Position numbers and translations under genes: made by a program
Assembly (NCBI GenBank): GCA_964576615.1
Contig: CAZNUU010000002.1
Coordinates: forward strand, 27,428-91,427
Origin: an uncultured Candidatus Saccharibacteria bacterium
Lineage (GTDB): Bacteria; Patescibacteriota; Minisyncoccia; Phycocordibacterales; DATDWN01
DNA: 64,000 bases
Reading direction: 5' to 3'
Shown here: positions 8,037 through 62,108 of the stretch, piece by piece
How positions within the stretch are numbered: position 1 is the stretch's first letter
How the letters are laid out: every line of letters starts with the position of its first letter
Notes under the pieces: model-generated
What the model saw: only the letters and a program-made list of their open reading frames with translations
The model's database searches: none
Told to the model about the DNA's origin: nothing

Positions 8037-8078
8037 AACCCCGTGCCGTGAAGCACGAGGCTCCACCTTACACGGGGT
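8037..8078 (-). terminator. Rho-independent terminator after the membrane-protein gene (accccgtg...cacggggt + T-run)
   Basis: GC stem with following T-run on the minus strand. Near-identical in architecture to the terminator at 10963-10991. Confidence 0.6.
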
Positions 8079-8458
8079 CAGAATTTCTTCACTGCGTTTG
8101 ATGCCTCGACGCTGTAGCCGCAGAGGAAGGCCAGGCCCAGAGCACGATCGCGGGCTTGATGCCAGCGGTGGATCTCTTTTTGGAGATCTTCCCAAGATTC
8201 GCTCCATCCAAGCATCTCCGTCATCCTGTCGCCAGGAAGATTGCCTTTCCGGTAGTTGTCGAAGTGGTTGTATGCCTGCCGGACTTTGTACTGCAGATCC
8301 TCCAGAACATCCGTGACCACAAGGTGAGGGAGATCCGGACCGTAAATCTTGCAGAACTCGATCGCGCAACGCTTTTCGAACGTTTTGCTATCGCGTTTCA
8401 AATACAGCGTGACAACAACCCCAAACACGAACCAGGCGGCAGCGATCAAATAGATCAT
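8078..8458 (-). CDS. Hypothetical small membrane protein (N-terminal TM, ~100 aa cytoplasmic domain), GC-rich cassette 1
   Basis: 126 aa, MIYLIAAAWFVFGVVVTLYL TM segment. Preceded by the conserved leader repeat C that ends in SD GATGAGGT. Confidence 0.5.
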   Translation of the reverse strand: MIYLIAAAWFVFGVVVTLYLKRDSKTFEKRCAIEFCKIYGPDLPHLVVTDVLEDLQYKVRQAYNHFDNYRKGNLPGDRMTEMLGWSESWEDLQKEIHRWHQARDRALGLAFLCGYSVEASNAVKKF

Positions 8459-8462
8459 ACGT

Positions 8463-8530
8463 TACCTCATCCAGGGTTCCAGCCCTGGCAACTCGCTGGG
8501 TCCTTCCCAACGATCTATCGGGACAATACC
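8463..8530 (-). promoter_or_regulatory. Conserved 5'-leader repeat family C, copy 1 (hairpin CAGGGCTGGAACCCTG overlapping SD)
   Basis: cctcatccagggttccagccctggcaactcgctgggtccttcccaacgatct. About 85% identical copy at 11373-11440, in the same position upstream of another small TM-protein gene. Confidence 0.6.
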
Positions 8531-11007: not shown

Positions 11008-11367
11008 TTATTGAACGAATCTTGCCACCGTTTTGCCATAGCCATTGATCATGCCTATACCAATGGCTCGGTCAAGTCGGCGCTGGGCCTTCCTCACCCT
11101 TCTCTCGGCGTCCTTGAAGTTTGCCTCACATTTCGACTCGTAGACTTTATTGGCACTTGATTTCGCCTGGGCTAGAAAGGCCCGGCAGGTGTTCATCCAT
11201 TCACGCTCGTTATTGAGATCAGCAGTGATTCGGACGAGCCTCAGATCGATCTCGTAATCACCGAAGGACCCGAAGGCAGGGAGGAGAGACCAAAATCGGA
11301 GCGGGGGGATGTACGGCCAGAAAACAAATGCGAAGAATACGATCGGAAACACAATGCTCATACTCAT
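11008..11367 (-). CDS. Hypothetical small membrane protein, GC-rich cassette 2 (possible paralog of 8078-8458)
   Basis: Start set at MSMSIVFPIVFF (SD GAGGTG inside repeat C) by analogy with cassette 1. The track ORF extends through the leader only because no stop intervenes. Confidence 0.45.
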   Translation of the reverse strand: MSMSIVFPIVFFAFVFWPYIPPLRFWSLLPAFGSFGDYEIDLRLVRITADLNNEREWMNTCRAFLAQAKSSANKVYESKCEANFKDAERRVRKAQRRLDRAIGIGMINGYGKTVARFVQ

Positions 11368-11372
11368 ACAAC

Positions 11373-11440
11373 ACCTCATCCAGGGTTTCAGCCCCGGCAA
11401 CTCGCGGGGTTCTTCCTCGCGATCTGCAATAAACAATACT
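11373..11440 (-). promoter_or_regulatory. Leader repeat family C, copy 2
   Basis: cctcatccagggtttcagccccggcaactcgcggggttcttcctcgcgatct. Confidence 0.6.
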
Positions 11441-11461
11441 ACTTTTAACAAATACTGTCAA

Positions 11462-13568: not shown

Positions 13569-14009
13569 TTATTTCACGAGGCCAAAATACTTGAGTGTCT
13601 CCAGAAGGCCGGGTTGGTGAGACCGGCACACCGAAACCTGAGCCCTGGTTCGACTCACCCATTCCGGCGGCAGGATGATTTCCGTACCATCTCGAATGGG
13701 TTTGTCTCGAAGCTGACCTTCGAAATCGGAATCCTGGAAAACGAAAAAGGTTTTCGGCTGACCACGATCGACCACGCTGAGTTCCGTAAGTGGTACAGCT
13801 TTTTCCTTGAGCCGGCGGCCAGTTTCGTCTCTGGTCTCTCGAGCTGCTGTTCCCCTCTTGGTTTGATCCTTCTTACTCCTCATTCCCCCCGGAAAGCCCA
13901 CTTTCTCAGGGAAACGAGGGTTATCCGGTATACTCTTCTGAACGAGGAGTTCGAGGGATTGATCTCGCCCCCTTACAGTCACAATCCCAGCCCACCACTT
14001 CTTTCGCAT
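13569..14009 (-). CDS. Nudix hydrolase (GC-rich, foreign-looking codon usage)
   Basis: 146 aa, Nudix box AARETRDETGR, SD AGGAGAG, own GC-stem terminator at 13545-13590. Confidence 0.6.
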   Translation of the reverse strand: MRKKWWAGIVTVRGRDQSLELLVQKSIPDNPRFPEKVGFPGGMRSKKDQTKRGTAARETRDETGRRLKEKAVPLTELSVVDRGQPKTFFVFQDSDFEGQLRDKPIRDGTEIILPPEWVSRTRAQVSVCRSHQPGLLETLKYFGLVK

Positions 14010-14713: not shown

Positions 14714-15280
14714 CTAGAGACCAGAGTCCCGAAACGACTGCCCGAAACCGTCTACCCCAAGAGCCTTTCGCGCAAGTGGCAGAAACGGGTCCGGGTGTAA
14801 TTCAGCCTGAGCACTTGGAGTTTCGAGTGGGGGTGTGGGCTCGAATACAACCCGAGCGGTTTCCCCCAGCGTCTCGCGCACGATCCGGTTTGGATTGAGC
14901 TCGGCCTCAGTCATTTCTCGAGGTGGATCGATCTTCACCACAACCGCACGGGCCGCCTCCGTCACGTCATGGACGAACTTCGGATCCCAGTTGTTGTTGT
15001 AGGTATCGAGCATCACACCGTCCTTCTGGGCACGGCAACGGTTCACGACCTCGACCAGCCGGACAAGTTCCGCGATCGGTAGAACAGAGACCATCCTCTC
15101 GACCAGCAAGAGCTCGTCGAGAATATCACTGAGCTTGGCATGAACATCGCCGGTTCGGTTGAGGTCTTTTTTCCCTTCCGGAGTGGCGATCACACCTTCG
15201 TTCAGGCTCTCGGCGAGCCCTTCGACCAGTACCCGCAGGTTGCGAGTACCGGTTTGCAGATTGTTGCACAGCCAATTCAT
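14714..15280 (-). CDS. Hypothetical protein, GC-rich cassette
   Basis: 188 aa, SD GGGAGGT 5 nt before ATG, GC3-rich, no recognisable motif. Confidence 0.4.
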   Translation of the reverse strand: MNWLCNNLQTGTRNLRVLVEGLAESLNEGVIATPEGKKDLNRTGDVHAKLSDILDELLLVERMVSVLPIAELVRLVEVVNRCRAQKDGVMLDTYNNNWDPKFVHDVTEAARAVVVKIDPPREMTEAELNPNRIVRETLGETARVVFEPTPPLETPSAQAELHPDPFLPLARKALGVDGFGQSFRDSGL

Positions 15281-15524
15281 TTGAACCTCCCGACCCTGAA
15301 CAGGTCAACGGCTTTTCTTACGATCTCGGACTGAGACACGGTATCCAGAAGATGCGTGATGTAATGAACACCAGGCACCCCAGCCACATACCATGCCATT
15401 GCACTTAGAATGTGTCGCACATCGCCTCCATAGTTAACTTGTTTTCCGTTTTCATTATGGTGAATATAGCTATGCTTGTCAAAGTCAGATTCCAAAAATT
15501 GCGTGATATAATTCAAAAAATTCT

Positions 15525-18500
15525 ATGTCGAAATTTACTCACCTCCACACTCATTCCCACTATTCTCTTTTGAATGCTCTGCCTAAAATTCCTGATCTTG
15601 TCTCTGAGGCAAAAAAGAGCGGAATGACTTCACTTGCCTTAACTGACAATTGCAATCTGTATGGAGCAATTGAATTTTTTAAAGAGTGTAAAAAAAAGGA
15701 AATAAAACCAATAATTGGTATTGATGCATATGTGGCATATCGCTCAAGACAAGACAAACAAGCTGGAATTGATAAAGAAAGGTATCGTCTAATACTTCTT
15801 GCAAAAAATGACACTGGTTACAAAAATTTAATAAAATTAGTCACCCTCGCCCATCTCGAAGGTTTTTACTACAAACCTCGCGTAGACAAAGAACTTCTAG
15901 AAAAATATTCCGAAGGACTAATTGCTATTTCCCCTTCCTTTTCTGGGGATATTGTTCAATCACTCAAATTGGCAAACGAAAACCAAGCTTTGGAGAGATT
16001 GGATTGGTATAGAAAGACATTTAAAGATGGTAGTGATGGCCCAAATTTTTATTTAGAAATTACTCATCACCCCGAAATGAAGGGTCATGAGGAGACGATA
16101 AAAAAAATCGTTGCATTCGCCCGAAAAACGAAGACTCCCCTGGTTGCCGCTCACGATGTTTATTATTTAAATCCCGAAGATAAAATTGCCAGACAGACCC
16201 TAATTGCAATTCAGTCTCAAAACGATGAAAAAATCGAAATAACAGAGGAAGATTTTTCTTTTATCTCCCCGAAACAAGCGGAAAAATTATTTAAAAACGA
16301 GCCAGATGCCATTGAGAACATAGAAAAAATTGTTGAGCGTTGCAATTTAGAAATTTCCATCGGGAAATGGTTTCTTCCTCCTTTCGAAATCAAAGGCCAA
16401 AGCCACGATGAGGCATTTAGAAAAATGGTTTTAGAGGGTCTCAAGAAGAGAAATTTAAAAAACACCAAAGAGATAGAAGATAGAATTGAATACGAGTTAA
16501 AAATTATTACGGACAAGGGCTACTCACCTTATTTTTTAGTCGTGGCGGATCTTCTTAACTTTGCTCATACCAACGGAATCCTCACCACAACCAGAGGCTC
16601 AGCGGCAGGCTCTCTTGCCAGTTATCTTTCTGGAATTACTAATGTAAACCCAATTTTTTATAATTTGCCGTTTGAAAGATTTCTAAACCCTGAGAGACCC
16701 AGCGCACCAGATATTGACATGGATTTTGCAGATACTAGACGAGGCGAAATAATCGAGTATGCCAAAAGAAAATATGGAGAAAATCGGGTAGCTCAAATTG
16801 GAACATTTGGTACTATGGCCGCACGCGGTTCAGTACGTGATGTAACTCGTGCCTTGGGTTTTCCTTACACCCTGGGAGATCAGATTGCTAAGTTAATTCC
16901 AATGGGTGCTCAAGGTTTCCCAATGACAATCGAAAGAGCCATGAAAGAAGAGCCTGACCTTAAAACACTGTATCAAAGCAACTCAGATGTAAAAAATATT
17001 ATTGATATGGCAAAAAAGATCGAGGGTTGTGCAAGACACATTTCGGTTCATGCTGCGGGCATGGTTATTGCACCAACCGAATTAACTGATTTTGTAGCTC
17101 TGCAATACGATACCAAGGGCGATAACAATATCATCACTCAATACGACATGCATTCAATCGGTGAAGACGGAGCAGGACTTTTAAAATTTGACATTCTGGG
17201 TATACGTAACCTCTCTATCTTGGCGGATGCGGTCAAGCGGGTGAAAAAAATTGAAGGTCTAGATATTGATGTGGAAAATGTGCCAATTGATGATAAAAAG
17301 ACTTTCGAAATGCTGGCTCGCGGCGAAACTGAAGGGTTATTTCAATTAAACGGCGATGGTATGACCAGGTCTCTCATGGAACTTAAGCCGACAGTTATTT
17401 TCGACATTAACCTTATGGTGGCACTTTATCGACCTGGACCAATGGAAAATATCCAGGAGTATATTAAAAGAAAGCATGGTCAAAAACCTGTAACTTACAT
17501 TCATCCAAAAATGAAAAGCTTTTTGGATAAAACTTATGGAGTATTGGTTTACCAAGATGATCTTATTTTAACTGCAATTGAAGTGGCAGGTTACAGTTGG
17601 GGCGAGGCAGATAAATTTAGAAAGGCTGTTGGTAAAAAAATCCCAGAAGAAATGGCCAAGCAACACGTTAAGTTCGTGGAAGGTTGTGTTAAAAACGGCG
17701 GCATGACTGAAAAAGCCGCGGAGGATTTATGGAAACTCTTTGAACCTTTCCAGGGTTACGGCTTTAACAAAGCGCACGCTGCAAGTTACGGTAAAGTCGC
17801 TTACCAAACTGCCTACATGAAAGCACACTTCCCCGCTATTTACATGTCCGCTGTGCTCACCGCAGAATCTGGGGATGTTGAGACTGTAGCAATCATGATA
17901 AATGAATGTAAGAGACTGGGCATTCCAGTTCTACCACCCGACATAAATTATTCCTTTGAAGGTTTTGGGGTAAATAAGGCTCAAAAAAGTGGGGCTAAAC
18001 CGAGCGATAACTCGGTCGCCCGATCCAGTGAAGCTGGATTTAGGGAGAAAGATACAATCAGATTTGGATTAACCACAATAAAAAACTTTGGGGAGGGAGT
18101 GGGAACATCGATTGTAGAAGAGAGAAAGAAAAATGGGCCATTCAAATCTCTATCTGATTTTTTGACTCGCATAAAAGACAAAAACTTAAACAAGAAATCA
18201 CTCGAATCACTGATAAAATCTGGGGCTATGGACTCGTTTGGGGATAGAAATCTGCTCCTCCATAACTTAGATCGTCTGCTTCAATTCAACAAGGAACAGC
18301 GTGGGAAGGAGTCTGAGCAAGATTCTTTATTCGGAAATTTGGGCGAGAGTGTCAAAGCTGCTGACATTCACCTTGAGAGAGCTGAAAACACAACTTTAGG
18401 TAACAAACTGATGTGGGAAAAAGAACTCCTAGGGTTATACATTTCTGGACATCCACTGGAGAGTTTTAAAAGTAAACTTGAAGCAAAAACTAGTATCAAA

Positions 18501-18773
18501 AACATAAAAGAGAAAACAAAAGAACGAGATCCTGTGGTGGTAGGTGGAATCATAGAAGAAATGAAAAGTACTTTGACCAAAAGTGGGGATAAAATGGTTT
18601 TTCTTAAAATCGCTGACCTGTCGGACTCAATCGAAGCGGTTGCCTTTCCAAAAATATTCGAAGAATTTAAGGACATTTTAATCGCCGAGAATTGTGTGGT
18701 TATAAAAGGTACACTTTCAACTAGAAATGGGGGTAAATCAATTCTGGTGGATAAAGTAAAAATGATGGAGTAA
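15525..18773 (+). CDS. dnaE: DNA polymerase III alpha subunit, with in-frame mini-element insertion
   Basis: 1082 aa, PHP domain HLHTHSHYSLL. Insert peptide AKPSDNSVARSSEAGFREKD is encoded by the element at 17983-18035. Confidence 0.95.
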   Translation: MSKFTHLHTHSHYSLLNALPKIPDLVSEAKKSGMTSLALTDNCNLYGAIEFFKECKKKEIKPIIGIDAYVAYRSRQDKQAGIDKERYRLILLAKNDTGYKNLIKLVTLAHLEGFYYKPRVDKELLEKYSEGLIAISPSFSGDIVQSLKLANENQALERLDWYRKTFKDGSDGPNFYLEITHHPEMKGHEETIKKIVAFARKTKTPLVAAHDVYYLNPEDKIARQTLIAIQSQNDEKIEITEEDFSFISPKQAEKLFKNEPDAIENIEKIVERCNLEISIGKWFLPPFEIKGQSHDEAFRKMVLEGLKKRNLKNTKEIEDRIEYELKIITDKGYSPYFLVVADLLNFAHTNGILTTTRGSAAGSLASYLSGITNVNPIFYNLPFERFLNPERPSAPDIDMDFADTRRGEIIEYAKRKYGENRVAQIGTFGTMAARGSVRDVTRALGFPYTLGDQIAKLIPMGAQGFPMTIERAMKEEPDLKTLYQSNSDVKNIIDMAKKIEGCARHISVHAAGMVIAPTELTDFVALQYDTKGDNNIITQYDMHSIGEDGAGLLKFDILGIRNLSILADAVKRVKKIEGLDIDVENVPIDDKKTFEMLARGETEGLFQLNGDGMTRSLMELKPTVIFDINLMVALYRPGPMENIQEYIKRKHGQKPVTYIHPKMKSFLDKTYGVLVYQDDLILTAIEVAGYSWGEADKFRKAVGKKIPEEMAKQHVKFVEGCVKNGGMTEKAAEDLWKLFEPFQGYGFNKAHAASYGKVAYQTAYMKAHFPAIYMSAVLTAESGDVETVAIMINECKRLGIPVLPPDINYSFEGFGVNKAQKSGAKPSDNSVARSSEAGFREKDTIRFGLTTIKNFGEGVGTSIVEERKKNGPFKSLSDFLTRIKDKNLNKKSLESLIKSGAMDSFGDRNLLLHNLDRLLQFNKEQRGKESEQDSLFGNLGESVKAADIHLERAENTTLGNKLMWEKELLGLYISGHPLESFKSKLEAKTSIKNIKEKTKERDPVVVGGIIEEMKSTLTKSGDKMVFLKIADLSDSIEAVAFPKIFEEFKDILIAENCVVIKGTLSTRNGGKSILVDKVKMME
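17983..18035. repeat. Mini-element family I, copy 3 (reverse orientation), in-frame in dnaE
   Basis: ggctaaaccgagcgataactcggtcgcccgatccagtgaagctggatttaggg is the reverse complement of copy 1 over ~30 nt. Encodes the same ARSSEAGFREK peptide as the helicase copy. Confidence 0.75.
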
Positions 18774-30408: not shown

Positions 30409-30483
30409 GGACCTTGCGAGCTCGACGTAGCGAGCACGAGGAATTTTTCAGCAGAAAAATATCCGTGTCCAGAAAACTCTGGG
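30409..30483. repeat. Repeat family B, copy 2, embedded in a longer hairpin (flanking inverted repeat taacgaagtc / gacttcgtta)
   Basis: Reverse complement matches 3284-3356 core cacggatatttttctgctgaaaaattcctcgtgctc exactly. Confidence 0.85.
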
Positions 30484-35478: not shown

Positions 35479-35545
35479 TGCGCTAGTATATAGAAAAGAG
35501 TTTAAAAAATCAACTTATTAGGATTCCGTTGAGCCGTATCTTGAA

Positions 35546-35620
35546 AAAAGCCTTTCGCAGGTGAGAAGCGAAGGCGACGAGAAGTTCGCTGGGCGAGCCC
35601 GCCCAGATAGATTGCTTTTT
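35546..35620. repeat. Repeat family A, copy 3 (with 5-nt internal insertion)
   Basis: aagcctttcgcaggtgagaagcgaaggcgacgagaagttcgctgggcgagcccgcccagatagattgctttt. Confidence 0.85.
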
Positions 35621-35644
35621 GAAAGATATGGCGAGTAAGGAATC

Positions 35645-57738: not shown

Positions 57739-58569
57739 TTATTTATTCCTCAAATTTTTATCTAGTGTATTACCTTTTTCATCTTTCCAAGCAGTCCAGC
57801 CGTTTATTGGACTCCCAGTAATTGTTGCAGCAGCTGCAGAAGGGCTCTTAAAAATTATATTCCTTAAAAATAAATACGAACTACCGTCATTGTTATCAAT
57901 CATTGTTCCATCTTCAAGATAACTCGCTCTCGCAGCCTTTGCCCATCCTGCAAAAGCAACTGTTTCTCTTTTTCTTGCCAATGAATGCTTCAATACATTT
58001 ATACTACCATCGTTTAATAACTGTGCTTTAGCATCAATACCTTCCCCTTTTAAGTAGTAGAATTTTTCGTCTGATATTGAGTCTTCGATACTATCAAAAA
58101 TATGATACCCGAAAGTTGAAAAGATTTTCTTTACACCATCAAGATATCTTTCGTTTTTTATGCGATCGAATTCGTTCTTAGCCTCTTCTCTTGGTTGTGT
58201 CGCATTTTTTACCACATATCTTTTAGCCTTTCTAGATAACTTCGCAGATATTGATTCAAGATAGTTTCTATCAGGAGGATTCAAAAAAATGAATGCCTGA
58301 TTCCAATAATCTTTTTCTGCATCATGAGACTCGAGTCGATTCGCACAATCACTAGATTCTCCGATATACACTAGCTGATTGCCTGTCTGTTTATCCTCAC
58401 CGAACAAGAAGTACAACCCTGAGGCTTGTATCTCCGGCCTCTCCTTCAGAGAGCCTATCTCAGTCCTTGGAACAATAATCGCTCTGCCGTCCCATCCAGT
58501 TAACTCAATAACTTTTATCCCATTAGGATCCCCTTTTGGAAAGATGAGCTGCATTACAAAAGACTCCAT
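57739..58569 (-). CDS. GIY-YIG nuclease domain protein with C-terminal DUF4357-like domain
   Basis: GLYFLFGE...VYIGES..R..H GIY-YIG motifs. C-terminal tail ...GSPINGWTAWKDEKGNTLD. Confidence 0.55.
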   Translation of the reverse strand: MESFVMQLIFPKGDPNGIKVIELTGWDGRAIIVPRTEIGSLKERPEIQASGLYFLFGEDKQTGNQLVYIGESSDCANRLESHDAEKDYWNQAFIFLNPPDRNYLESISAKLSRKAKRYVVKNATQPREEAKNEFDRIKNERYLDGVKKIFSTFGYHIFDSIEDSISDEKFYYLKGEGIDAKAQLLNDGSINVLKHSLARKRETVAFAGWAKAARASYLEDGTMIDNNDGSSYLFLRNIIFKSPSAAAATITGSPINGWTAWKDEKGNTLDKNLRNK

Positions 58570-58785
58570 CTCGCTATTAGATCACAGAATTAACCTCGCT
58601 GCAAAATATCTGACACATAATTTTTGGTTGCGGAAACGAAGGGATTCGAAACTTACAGTTTCAGTACCCCAATTGGATATAATATTTCGCTTTGCTTATA
58701 TTATATCTCAATCGGGCTTCGAATCCCCACAGAAGCTACGCCCATAGCTTCCTCCTAAAATTTAACTTCGTTAAATTTTTTCCTG

Positions 58786-58872
58786 CGGAAACGAAGGGAT
58801 TCGAACCCTTGAAGGAGTTGCCCCCTTACCCGCTTTCCAAGCGAGCGCACTAGACCTCTATGCGACGTTTCC
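58786..58872 (-). tRNA. tRNA-Ser (anticodon GGA), type II
   Basis: GGAAACG/CGTTTCC acceptor, anticodon loop TTGGAAA, long variable arm, T-arm AAGGG-TTCGAAT-CCCTT. Confidence 0.8.
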
Positions 58873-62027: not shown

Positions 62028-62108
62028 CTTGAAGAGAGACTTGCGAGCGCGACTGGCGCGAGCACGAGGAAAATTTTAGCAAAAATTTATCCGTGCTCTC
62101 TGAGAGAT
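62028..62108. repeat. Repeat family B, copy 3, flanked by 10-bp inverted repeat attctcgagc / gctcgagaat
   Basis: Reverse complement aligns to 3284-3356 (gagcacggata..tttttgct.aaaattttcctcgtgctcgcgccagtcgcgctc). Confidence 0.85.

Follow-up and report, generated by a model that had tools for sequence, protein, structure and literature searches.

In-frame double-hairpin insertions in PIF1-like helicase, trmD and dnaE genes: a probable family of very small mobile elements in Zambryskibacteria-type Patescibacteria

The 64-kb stretch of contig CAZNUU010000002.1 analyzed here (the window) has a GC content of about 40% and is densely occupied by housekeeping genes, the majority of them on the minus strand. 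Three of these genes, encoding a PIF1-like helicase, TrmD and the alpha subunit of DNA polymerase III (DnaE), each carry one copy of a non-coding double-hairpin element 46–59 bp in length. The initial annotation, made from the sequence alone, had noticed these three copies of one element; it had identified the host genes correctly and had rightly described their open reading frames (ORFs) as intact. The host genes and the copies are as follows.

1–1518, minus strand: host gene 1, PIF1-like helicase; the C-terminus lies beyond the left edge of the window.
3375–4121, minus strand: host gene 2, trmD, 248 aa.
15525–18773, plus strand: host gene 3, dnaE, DNA polymerase III alpha, 1082 aa.
114–169, minus strand: copy 1, within the helicase gene; 54-nt insertion, 36.9 bits. 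On the plus strand: flank repeat CC 114–115, CTAAA 116–120, hairpin TCCAGC-TTC-GCTGGA 121–135, linker TCGGGCGA 136–143, AT-rich hairpin TCAAATTT-TTC-AAATTTGA 144–162, TTTAG 163–167, CC 168–169. On the gene-sense strand: GG-CTAAA-hairpin 2-TCGCCCGA-hairpin 1-TTTAG-GG; peptide AKSNLKNLIARSSEAGFR.
3890–3939, minus strand: copy 2, within trmD; 48-nt insertion, 80.7 bits. On the plus strand: TC 3890–3891, CTAAA 3892–3896, hairpin CCAGC-TTC-GCTGG 3897–3909, linker TCGGACGA 3910–3917, hairpin TCCGC-CTTTA-GCGGA 3918–3932, TTTAG 3933–3937, TC 3938–3939. On the sense strand: GA-CTAAA-..-TCGTCCGA-..-TTTAG-GA; peptide TKSAKGGSSDQRSWFR.
17993–18045 with flanks (element 17995–18043), plus strand: copy 3, within dnaE; 51-nt insertion, 30.6 bits. 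GG 17993–17994, CTAAA 17995–17999, hairpin CCGAG-CGATAA-CTCGG 18000–18015, linker TCGCCCGA 18016–18023, hairpin TCCAGT-GAA-GCTGGA 18024–18038, TTTAG 18039–18043, GG 18044–18045; peptide AKPSDNSVARSSEAGFR.

The composite motif CCTAAA-N0-2-CCAGN5CTGG-N0-2-TCGG has three exact matches in the window (at 115 and 3891 on the plus strand and at 18044 on the minus strand), the chance expectation in 100 dinucleotide shuffles of the window being 0.00. The hairpin alone, searched for with two mismatches allowed, gave three matches against 1.76 expected, which is not significant. A covariance model, whose bit scores are listed above, found only the three copies in the window, and the next match scored 10 bits. 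When the window was compared with Rfam, only four tRNAs reached the gathering score, and nothing was reported on the element at E-values up to 10.

Several details of the initial annotation had to be corrected. The dnaE copy had been placed at 17983–18035, about 10 nt away from its true position. The proposed GC content of 55–60% approximates that of the trmD (0.54) and dnaE (0.57) copies, but the helicase copy with its AT-rich second hairpin has only 0.43. The dnaE copy is reverse-complemented in window coordinates, as had been stated, because dnaE sits on the opposite strand; relative to the host genes, all three copies share one orientation. Two antisense ORFs, 35–400 (plus strand) and 17981–18193 (minus strand), had been considered spurious. 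They are so, since the element (frame LNPASLDRA) gave rise to them or lengthened them, and they may be reported by gene callers.

Read along the sense strand of the gene, every copy has the same anatomy: (G-N) CTAAA – hairpin A – TCG-X-CCGA – hairpin B – TTTAG (G-N), where the linker may also be written TCGYCCGA. The constant parts are the ends and this 8-nt linker; the hairpin sequences are wholly different between sites. Two subtypes are distinguished by one additional base pair at the base of hairpin B. Subtype I (helicase, dnaE, and a TatD hydrolase gene from a related locus, see below) encodes the peptide ARSSEAGFR, and subtype II (trmD and the related locus L003) encodes S(S/P)DQRSWFR; the longer peptides reported for the window, ARSSEAGFREK in the helicase and DnaE and SSDQRSWFRKR in TrmD, were read correctly. 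The termini had been taken for a 7-nt inverted repeat GGCTAAA/TTTAGCC. Only the 5 nt CTAAA/TTTAG are inverted, and these are invariant in 12 of 13 aligned copies; the two outer bases form a direct repeat (GG..GG or GA..GA).

Comparison with orthologs, which had been suggested as a check, revealed precise indels at all three sites of the window, each in a variable loop that is read through in frame. The usual length of TrmD in Zambryskibacteria/Parcubacteria relatives is 216–218 aa; the 248 aa of the window protein are due to two unrelated palindromic inserts, the double-hairpin element and, at approximately 3990–4039, a 45-nt representative of a second family. The 48-nt trmD element is missing in 113 of 120 TrmD orthologs and is found at the same codon in seven relatives (L001, L004, L006–L009 and L011). 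All seven, which have the residues of the insert, also share the palindromic DNA; had the residues occurred without it, the interpretation of the insert as an element would have been undermined. In the AlphaFold2 model of the window TrmD, the predicted local distance difference test score (pLDDT) is below 50 at residues 28–43, 61–66 and 75–77, within the two inserts, and the alignment to solved structures from PDB breaks between residues 25 and 78, covering both of them. The helicase insert lies in a lysine-rich linker preceding the C-terminal HTH_40-type tail (the HTH_40 annotation comes from orthologs) and is absent in all four orthologs (L004, L005, L008 and L009); at this site L004 and L005 read AAA AGA AAA/GAG AAA, without the 54 nt of the window. 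The dnaE insert lies within the HHH_6 domain match and is absent in all 119 DnaE orthologs, which are 63–76% identical to the window protein; it extends a loop with the modal length of 19 aa (15–52 aa in orthologs) by 17 aa to 36 aa.

Small insertions seem to be concentrated in the trmD and DnaE loops. In other lineages the DnaE loop carries unrelated inserts of as many as 33 additional residues, and in the TrmD ortholog P0070 (DDK-PARPNGRSGR-W) another 10-aa insert, which looks palindromic, is located one codon away from where the element entered trmD. The DnaE orthologs P0178 and P0221 (1531–1535 aa) contain the intein domains PF14528 and PF14890.

Copies outside the window were collected by DNA pattern scans of whole sequence collections (at least one match in genome_contigs and at least two in metagenome_contigs) and from the DNA of TrmD orthologs. 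In total the family comprises at least 16 copies in at least eight assemblies of different sources. They occupy eight independent sites, which form the evidence base for the family.

PIF1 helicase: window; in frame.
dnaE: window; in frame.
trmD, internal: window, L001, L004, L006–L009, L011; in frame.
TatD hydrolase: L002; in frame.
Intergenic: L003; stop codons immediately upstream.
trmD, 3' end: L009; TAA of the element serves as the stop codon.
trmD, 3' end, behind the C-terminal Trp codon: L004; the element supplies LKSH-stop.
trmD, second internal site: L011; another reading frame, peptide LNRFDKNGRPIRKADLG.

Thus the statement that the element always lies inside an intact ORF is valid for the three copies in the window but not outside it, where some copies are found at gene ends or between genes. 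The copies insert at G-N dinucleotides within purine-rich stretches and lengthen the site by the element itself and a further 2 nt. Copies within ORFs add 54, 51, 48, 48 and 51 nt, all divisible by 3, and none of the five has an in-frame stop; the three copies at gene ends or in intergenic regions add 48, 58 and 61 nt. The constant part of the element is open in four of the six frames. This pattern of lengths and frames identifies the in-frame rule as survival of insertions and not a property of insertion: for a copy to persist inside a gene, it must add a multiple of three nucleotides, its frame must be free of stops, and the resulting 16–18 aa must fall in a tolerant surface loop; copies of other lengths are retained at gene 3' ends or between genes. 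Depending on the frame, the same core DNA encodes ARSSEAGFR, SSDQRSWFR or GRPIRKADLG, and since different frames give unrelated peptides, the conserved unit is the nucleic acid and not the protein. Moreover, all seven orientable sites have the element in the sense orientation relative to the local gene, including three sites free of the frame constraint.

At the protein level, a 41-column profile with the invariant ARSSEAGFR core gave 19 candidates but no match in a database of 5.8 billion proteins, and the sole match of a 33-column profile of the window sequences in a library of 1.84 billion representative proteins was an unrelated TPR-repeat protein (P0241). The viral contig L010 (13310–13330) matches the linker and hairpin B exactly over 21 nt (ACGCCCGATCCAGCGAAGCTGG), without the ends or the second hairpin; this match, antisense within a phage ORF, is probably due to chance. 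From the two copies of L009, the "constant" hairpin seemed to be genome-specific, an idea that lost ground because the hairpins of the two L004 copies differ. The locus L001 (CAYUID010000016.1) is labelled as an uncultured Candidatus Saccharibacteria bacterium; its trmD and element match Zambryskibacteria/Parcubacteria-type loci, and the bin label may be wrong.

Folded as single strands, the copies have energies far below those of shuffled controls, with z-scores from −2.8 to −4.6, in line with the hairpins initially proposed. In the alignment of 13 copies, pairing holds in 99.5% of stem cells, and compensatory double changes occur in 10 of the 16 pairs, values reached in none of 500 shuffles; this alignment was fitted to the covariance model, which favors structure, but the hairpins are nonetheless plain by eye. 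The non-Watson-Crick stem pairs comprise four G.T pairs on the sense strand, two of them internal to stems, versus one A.C pair at a loop edge, and this excess of G.T weakly indicates the sense strand as the folding one. In the dnaE copy, the T.G wobble of the hairpin TCCAGT-GAA-GCTGGA can pair on the plus strand only.

The copy at the internal trmD site is conserved to an unusual degree. Its nucleotide identity between lineages is 0.90–0.94, whereas the four-fold sites of the same genes are saturated (0.23–0.45); third codon positions inside the element are 0.82–1.00 identical, and the high identity of the element holds for the syntenic sister pair L006/L007 as well. The differences are confined to the loops (GAA, AAC, GGA, AAA, GAC), and the stems vary by compensation or wobble only. 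In L009 a compensatory change from C-G to T-A replaces Gly by Arg, and hairpin B is remodelled with the pairing still perfect. The location of the differences in loops, together with these compensatory changes, shows that it is the folded nucleic acid that is conserved. Either selection or recurrent correction templated by other copies appears to maintain the trmD hairpins, and the initial view of a purely selfish element leaves this nucleotide-level conservation unexplained.

The dinucleotide preceding CTAAA equals that following TTTAG at seven of the eight sites (GG/GG six times and GA/GA once), and at empty sites it is present once. This agrees with a target-site duplication, which had been named as a point to check, although the same pattern is expected if both flanks match an internal guide. 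At the eighth site, the second one in L011, the flank copies differ (AC/GC), yet both retain the base complementary to the linker. Minimum-energy folds pair the 5' flank and the adjacent C with the middle of the linker; accordingly, the second flank base and linker base 4 are complementary at every one of the eight sites (G:C six times, A:T once and C:G once, the only three states seen). Among the orthologous trmD copies, L007 alone breaks the complementarity. These observations amount to two independent covariation events and are suggestive of a link between the flank and the linker.

The presence of the trmD copy is phylogenetically patchy, and the copy lies within a short mosaic patch. On the neighbor-joining tree the seven carriers are scattered, each adjoining non-carriers, though this tree is based on 216 columns and is poorly resolved. 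L005, the closest relative of the window, shares its synteny and its second trmD insert but lacks the element in both trmD and the helicase gene. Over the 5' half, the trmD genes of the window and L005 show 93–100% identity, interrupted by a patch of about 30 nt at the insertion site with 10 differences in 27 nt. A Val residue five positions upstream of the insert is present in four of the seven carriers and in none of the 112 non-carriers parsed at this site. Given these observations, the element may quite possibly have moved between Zambryskibacteria lineages in a short allele patch, by transformation and homologous recombination, and neither by repeated transposition nor by purely vertical inheritance. 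Any such transfer must be old, as the shared Val is encoded by four codons (GTA, GTG, GTC and GTT), and P0003 and P0020 have two element sites in common, which points to ordinary descent. In our reading of the history of the trmD copy, recombination long ago transferred or replaced a short allele patch, in addition to vertical descent. At the trmD 3' end, L011 has a probable decayed remnant where L004 has an intact copy, hence not every copy is protected.

Taken together, these data make it likely, with a probability of roughly three in four, that the copies constitute a family of mobile, non-autonomous double-hairpin elements of Zambryskibacteria-type Patescibacteria that are translated through in host genes. 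The precise indels and the eight independent sites bear out the reading of the initial annotation, which had likened the copies to Rickettsia palindromic elements (RPEs), palindromic mini-elements inserted into coding genes that stay translatable. Three observations weigh against this conclusion. The copy number is low: the window has three copies in 64 kb, and a related locus has usually one and never more than three. Conservation of the trmD copy far exceeds the neutral expectation, which would not be predicted for a decaying selfish insert. Finally, the window contains no transposase, integrase or HUH gene, and no enzyme is linked to the element.

Movement of such an element would require a trans-acting enzyme encoded elsewhere in the genome. 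The approximately 60 ORFs of the window are housekeeping genes or have no assigned function, and neither a transposase nor an insertion sequence (IS) with CTAAA ends was found in about 190 kb of loci examined. The relative L004 has a RAYT-like Y1 (HUH) gene at 15142–15768 (minus strand). It was rejected as direct evidence for the mover, since the palindromes flanking it are unrelated to the element, and a tblastn search with its protein found no match in the window. These palindromes, near-identical 23-nt sequences ATGTCAAAGAGACTCTTTGACAT at 15139–15161 and 15779–15801, bracket the gene and represent a separate system similar to repetitive extragenic palindromes (REPs).

The mechanism that we tentatively prefer is single-strand "peel and paste" transposition of the kind known from IS200/IS605 and REP/RAYT, carried out by an HUH/Y1-type enzyme. 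The two subterminal hairpins would be its binding sites on the sense strand (the non-template strand, or the lagging-strand template), and base-pairing with the central linker would select the flanking dinucleotide. This mechanism would explain the two hairpins, the strict sense orientation, the wobble pairs on the sense strand and the flank-linker complementarity. It is weakened by the fact that the sole Y1 gene seen, that of L004, is flanked by its own palindromes, and by the perfectly conserved 5-bp inverted repeat and 2-nt flank repeat, which look like those of a MITE (miniature inverted-repeat transposable element) of the DDE type. As for the proposed guide, only two sites deviate from the GG/C state and so supply covariation, the ortholog L007 breaks the rule, and at L011 the first flank base is not the expected one.

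As the main alternative to the HUH mechanism, a classical DDE transposase with its gene elsewhere in the genome would mobilize the element as an ordinary MITE; it would recognize the CTAAA ends and make a cut with a 2-bp stagger, duplicating 2 bp of the target, the hairpins being incidental or an internal binding site. The near-invariant inverted repeat, the exact 2-nt direct repeats at seven of eight sites and the single dinucleotide at empty sites are what this would produce, and a precedent is provided by the yeast mitochondrial element GC42, a 42-nt hairpin with a 2-nt (AG) target duplication (PMC4478555). However, no parent IS with such ends was present in any locus examined, and a DDE transposase gives no reason for the linker-flank covariation, the strict sense orientation or the compensatory upkeep of the stems; nor does it account for the differing flanks of L011, both of which keep the linker-complementary base. 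On balance, we regard it as only slightly less probable than the HUH mechanism, neither of the two being more likely than not.

Less likely still, the structure may have been exapted: the folded mRNA or sense-strand DNA would serve the host as a processing or stability signal, or as a protein-binding or priming signal, and would be kept by purifying selection. This would account for the excess identity of the trmD copies over four-fold sites (L006/L007 included), for the restriction of substitutions to loops and compensated or wobble positions, and for the sense orientation of all orientable copies relative to transcription. On the other hand, the majority of orthologs manage without the element (113 of 120 TrmD and 119 of 119 DnaE), the host genes are functionally unrelated, the trmD 3'-end copy has probably decayed in L011 and is intact in L004, and Rfam gives no match. 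Further, the hairpin sequences are freely exchangeable between copies, which implies no specific RNA partner.

Four features go beyond junk DNA: the conservation of the old trmD copy, the strand bias, the flank-linker complementarity and the patchy presence in trmD; the first three are anomalies that raise the finding above the routine. A more far-reaching version of the preferred HUH mechanism seems doubtful to us. The approximately 50-nt double hairpin would be a previously undescribed minimal mobile DNA with its own target guide, which a host-encoded HUH-type enzyme would move as single-stranded DNA out of and into non-template strands of transcribed genes, with the old copies in essential genes such as trmD kept intact by selection. 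The linker would base-pair with the flanking dinucleotide on each strand, and old copies would be kept because the fold gained a host role or because copies are continually re-templated. If this is true, proteins of Patescibacteria are remodelled by a guided, strand-specific mini-transposon.

It is very improbable that the insert is a feature of the protein, adaptive or ancestral, whose loop peptide is conserved for its amino acids with palindromy as a by-product. The peptide TKSAKGGSSDQRSWFR is near-identical in several TrmDs, but one DNA core gives three unrelated peptides in different hosts, the third codon positions are far more identical within the element than the four-fold sites outside it, the compensatory stem change in L009 alters the residue, and the inserts are low-confidence loops in the AlphaFold2 model. 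Chance resemblance or an assembly artefact, for which only the small copy number speaks, is scarcely credible, given zero matches in shuffles and the same element in independent assemblies from NCBI, ENA, JGI and Logan. RNA-level removal of the insert (intron-like or by bypass) was rejected as unnecessary, as all five in-ORF copies are divisible by 3 and have no in-frame stop. Likeness to integron attC sites, with their R''/R' boxes, was rejected because the element is a double and not a single hairpin, and there is no cassette, and no integrase in the window.

The second, unrelated family of GC-rich palindromic in-frame inserts is represented in the window at 3990–4039 (trmD) and 6459–6541 (RNase R, 5529–7511, plus strand), with the termini CCCCGACGC...GCGTCGGGG. 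The 45-nt trmD insert of this family (peptide PRRQKGSGSRPKASG) is present in P0002, P0004, P0032, P0065 and P0080 but not in the majority of TrmD orthologs; for the RNase R island, the folding energy is −47.5 kcal/mol. Other GC-rich, strongly structured islands occur in AT-rich genes at 4952–5006 (ribosomal protein S16) and 13597–13678 (a NUDIX gene). These may be in-frame palindromic inserts of other families, and the S16 protein of the window (134 aa) is long for its family.

The window contains further repeats. A GC-rich intergenic repeat occurs three times (3125–3253, 35506–35639 and, reverse-complemented, 7546–7598), with 89% identity over 76 nt; it contains the hairpin CTGGGCG(A/G)GC(C/T)CGCCCAG, is always located directly downstream of a gene, and could be terminator-like or small-RNA-like. 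A 38-nt intergenic repeat (30430–30467 and 62058–62095, 84% identical), which contains GAGCACGAGGAA, is found upstream of release-factor and TPM-domain genes, and its 12-mer reappears reverse-complemented with one mismatch at 3315–3330. A 62-nt repeat (8455–8516 and 11364–11425, 84% identical) with the hairpin CCAGGG..CCCTGG is located at the 5' ends of two hypothetical minus-strand ORFs, 8078–8458 and 11008–11451, or just upstream of them. A 32-nt direct repeat (58619–58650 and 58774–58805, 91% identical) copies the 3' part of tRNA-Ser(gga) (58785–58872) and adjoins a DUF4357/RAMA-domain gene (57739–58569); it looks like the att-site duplication of an integrating element. The hypothetical ORF 14714–15280 (minus strand) has no Pfam match, is far GC-richer than its neighbors, with GC islands in 14824–15253, and may be foreign DNA.

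The practical consequences of such inserts concern annotation and phylogeny: they distort or inflate gene calls and alignments of marker proteins used in phylogeny of the candidate phyla radiation (TrmD, DnaE, RNase R, S16) and create spurious antisense ORFs. The double-hairpin element is short enough for oligonucleotide synthesis and bears three testable signatures (compensated hairpins, sense orientation, flank-linker complementarity), which could reveal either a new guided single-strand transposition system or how selection preserves a "selfish" hairpin in an essential gene.

Several known systems resemble the element in part. A precedent is IS608: its TnpA transposase binds hairpins that lie subterminally, finds cleavage and target sites through pairing with internal guides next to them, and works on the template of the lagging strand (PMC3201880, PMC5934647, PMC6006769). 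In the IS200/IS605-derived palindrome-associated transposable elements (PATEs) and in REP/RAYT systems, too, hairpins lie close to both ends, single-stranded DNA is acted upon in a strand-specific manner, and the target or cleavage site is recognized by pairing with a guide beside the hairpin (PMC3201880, PMC5934647, PMC3333891, PMC6006769). The double-hairpin element agrees with them in the subterminal hairpins and in the strand-specific orientation (seven of seven sites sense to the local gene). In contrast, IS200/IS605 elements have neither terminal inverted repeats nor target duplication, whereas the double-hairpin element has both the 5-bp repeat and the 2-nt flank repeat, and REPs are extragenic with a conserved GTAG-type head. 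Generic MITEs are likewise small, non-coding, multi-copy and insertion-polymorphic between relatives and have terminal inverted repeats, which here are of 5 bp only; the difference is that no parent IS or transposase with the same ends was found in the window and the approximately 190 kb of loci. QMITEs of Coxiella burnetii and other intragenic bacterial MITEs are small inverted-repeat elements with occasional in-frame ORF fusions, but they are several-fold larger, mostly intergenic and IS-derived (PMC5896051, PMC3184786).

In behavior the nearest match is GC42, a GC-rich hairpin in an AT-rich genome whose mover is unknown; its substitutions fall mainly in loops, its stems are more conserved than synonymous sites, and its hairpin modules appear to merge or shuffle (PMC4478555). 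GC42 differs in being mitochondrial and mostly intergenic and in having other ends and another target, whereas the copies of the double-hairpin element are mostly inside bacterial coding genes. The mitochondrial double-hairpin elements of Allomyces, described by Paquin, Laforest and Lang in 2000 (cited in PMC4478555), are also close; they are said to be a few tens of nucleotides long and to show signs of mobility, including insertion into genes. They too reportedly have two hairpins, but are organellar and of unrelated sequence, and no flank-linker complementarity is said to have been described for them.

The RPEs (families RPE-1 to RPE-10; Ogata et al. 2000, summarized in PMC10969869) are palindromic repeats of about 150 bp found in-frame in housekeeping genes of Alphaproteobacteria. 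Like the double-hairpin element, they are palindromic and non-autonomous, occupy unrelated housekeeping genes in frame, and add a peptide compatible with fold and function (PMC10969869), and no transposase is known for either. However, RPEs are about 100–150 bp long and occur in Rickettsia, whereas the double-hairpin element measures 46–59 bp and is found in Patescibacteria. Its anatomy is defined by a 5-bp inverted repeat, a 2-nt flank repeat, an invariant 8-nt linker and two hairpins that are exchangeable; a relationship in sequence to RPEs is not to be expected. Since size, host and anatomy all differ, we classify the element, on these grounds and not by sequence comparison, as an RPE analogue and not as a member of the RPEs. 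A search of one literature library revealed no report of such, or of MITE-like, elements in Patescibacteria; the copies described here represent a new, unusually small RPE-like or MITE-like family in Zambryskibacteria-type Patescibacteria, a lineage with tiny genomes and few known mobile elements. In-frame palindromic insertion into housekeeping genes has so far been a hallmark of Rickettsia, and an independent, much smaller analogue suggests that this way of protein-loop evolution recurs in reduced genomes.

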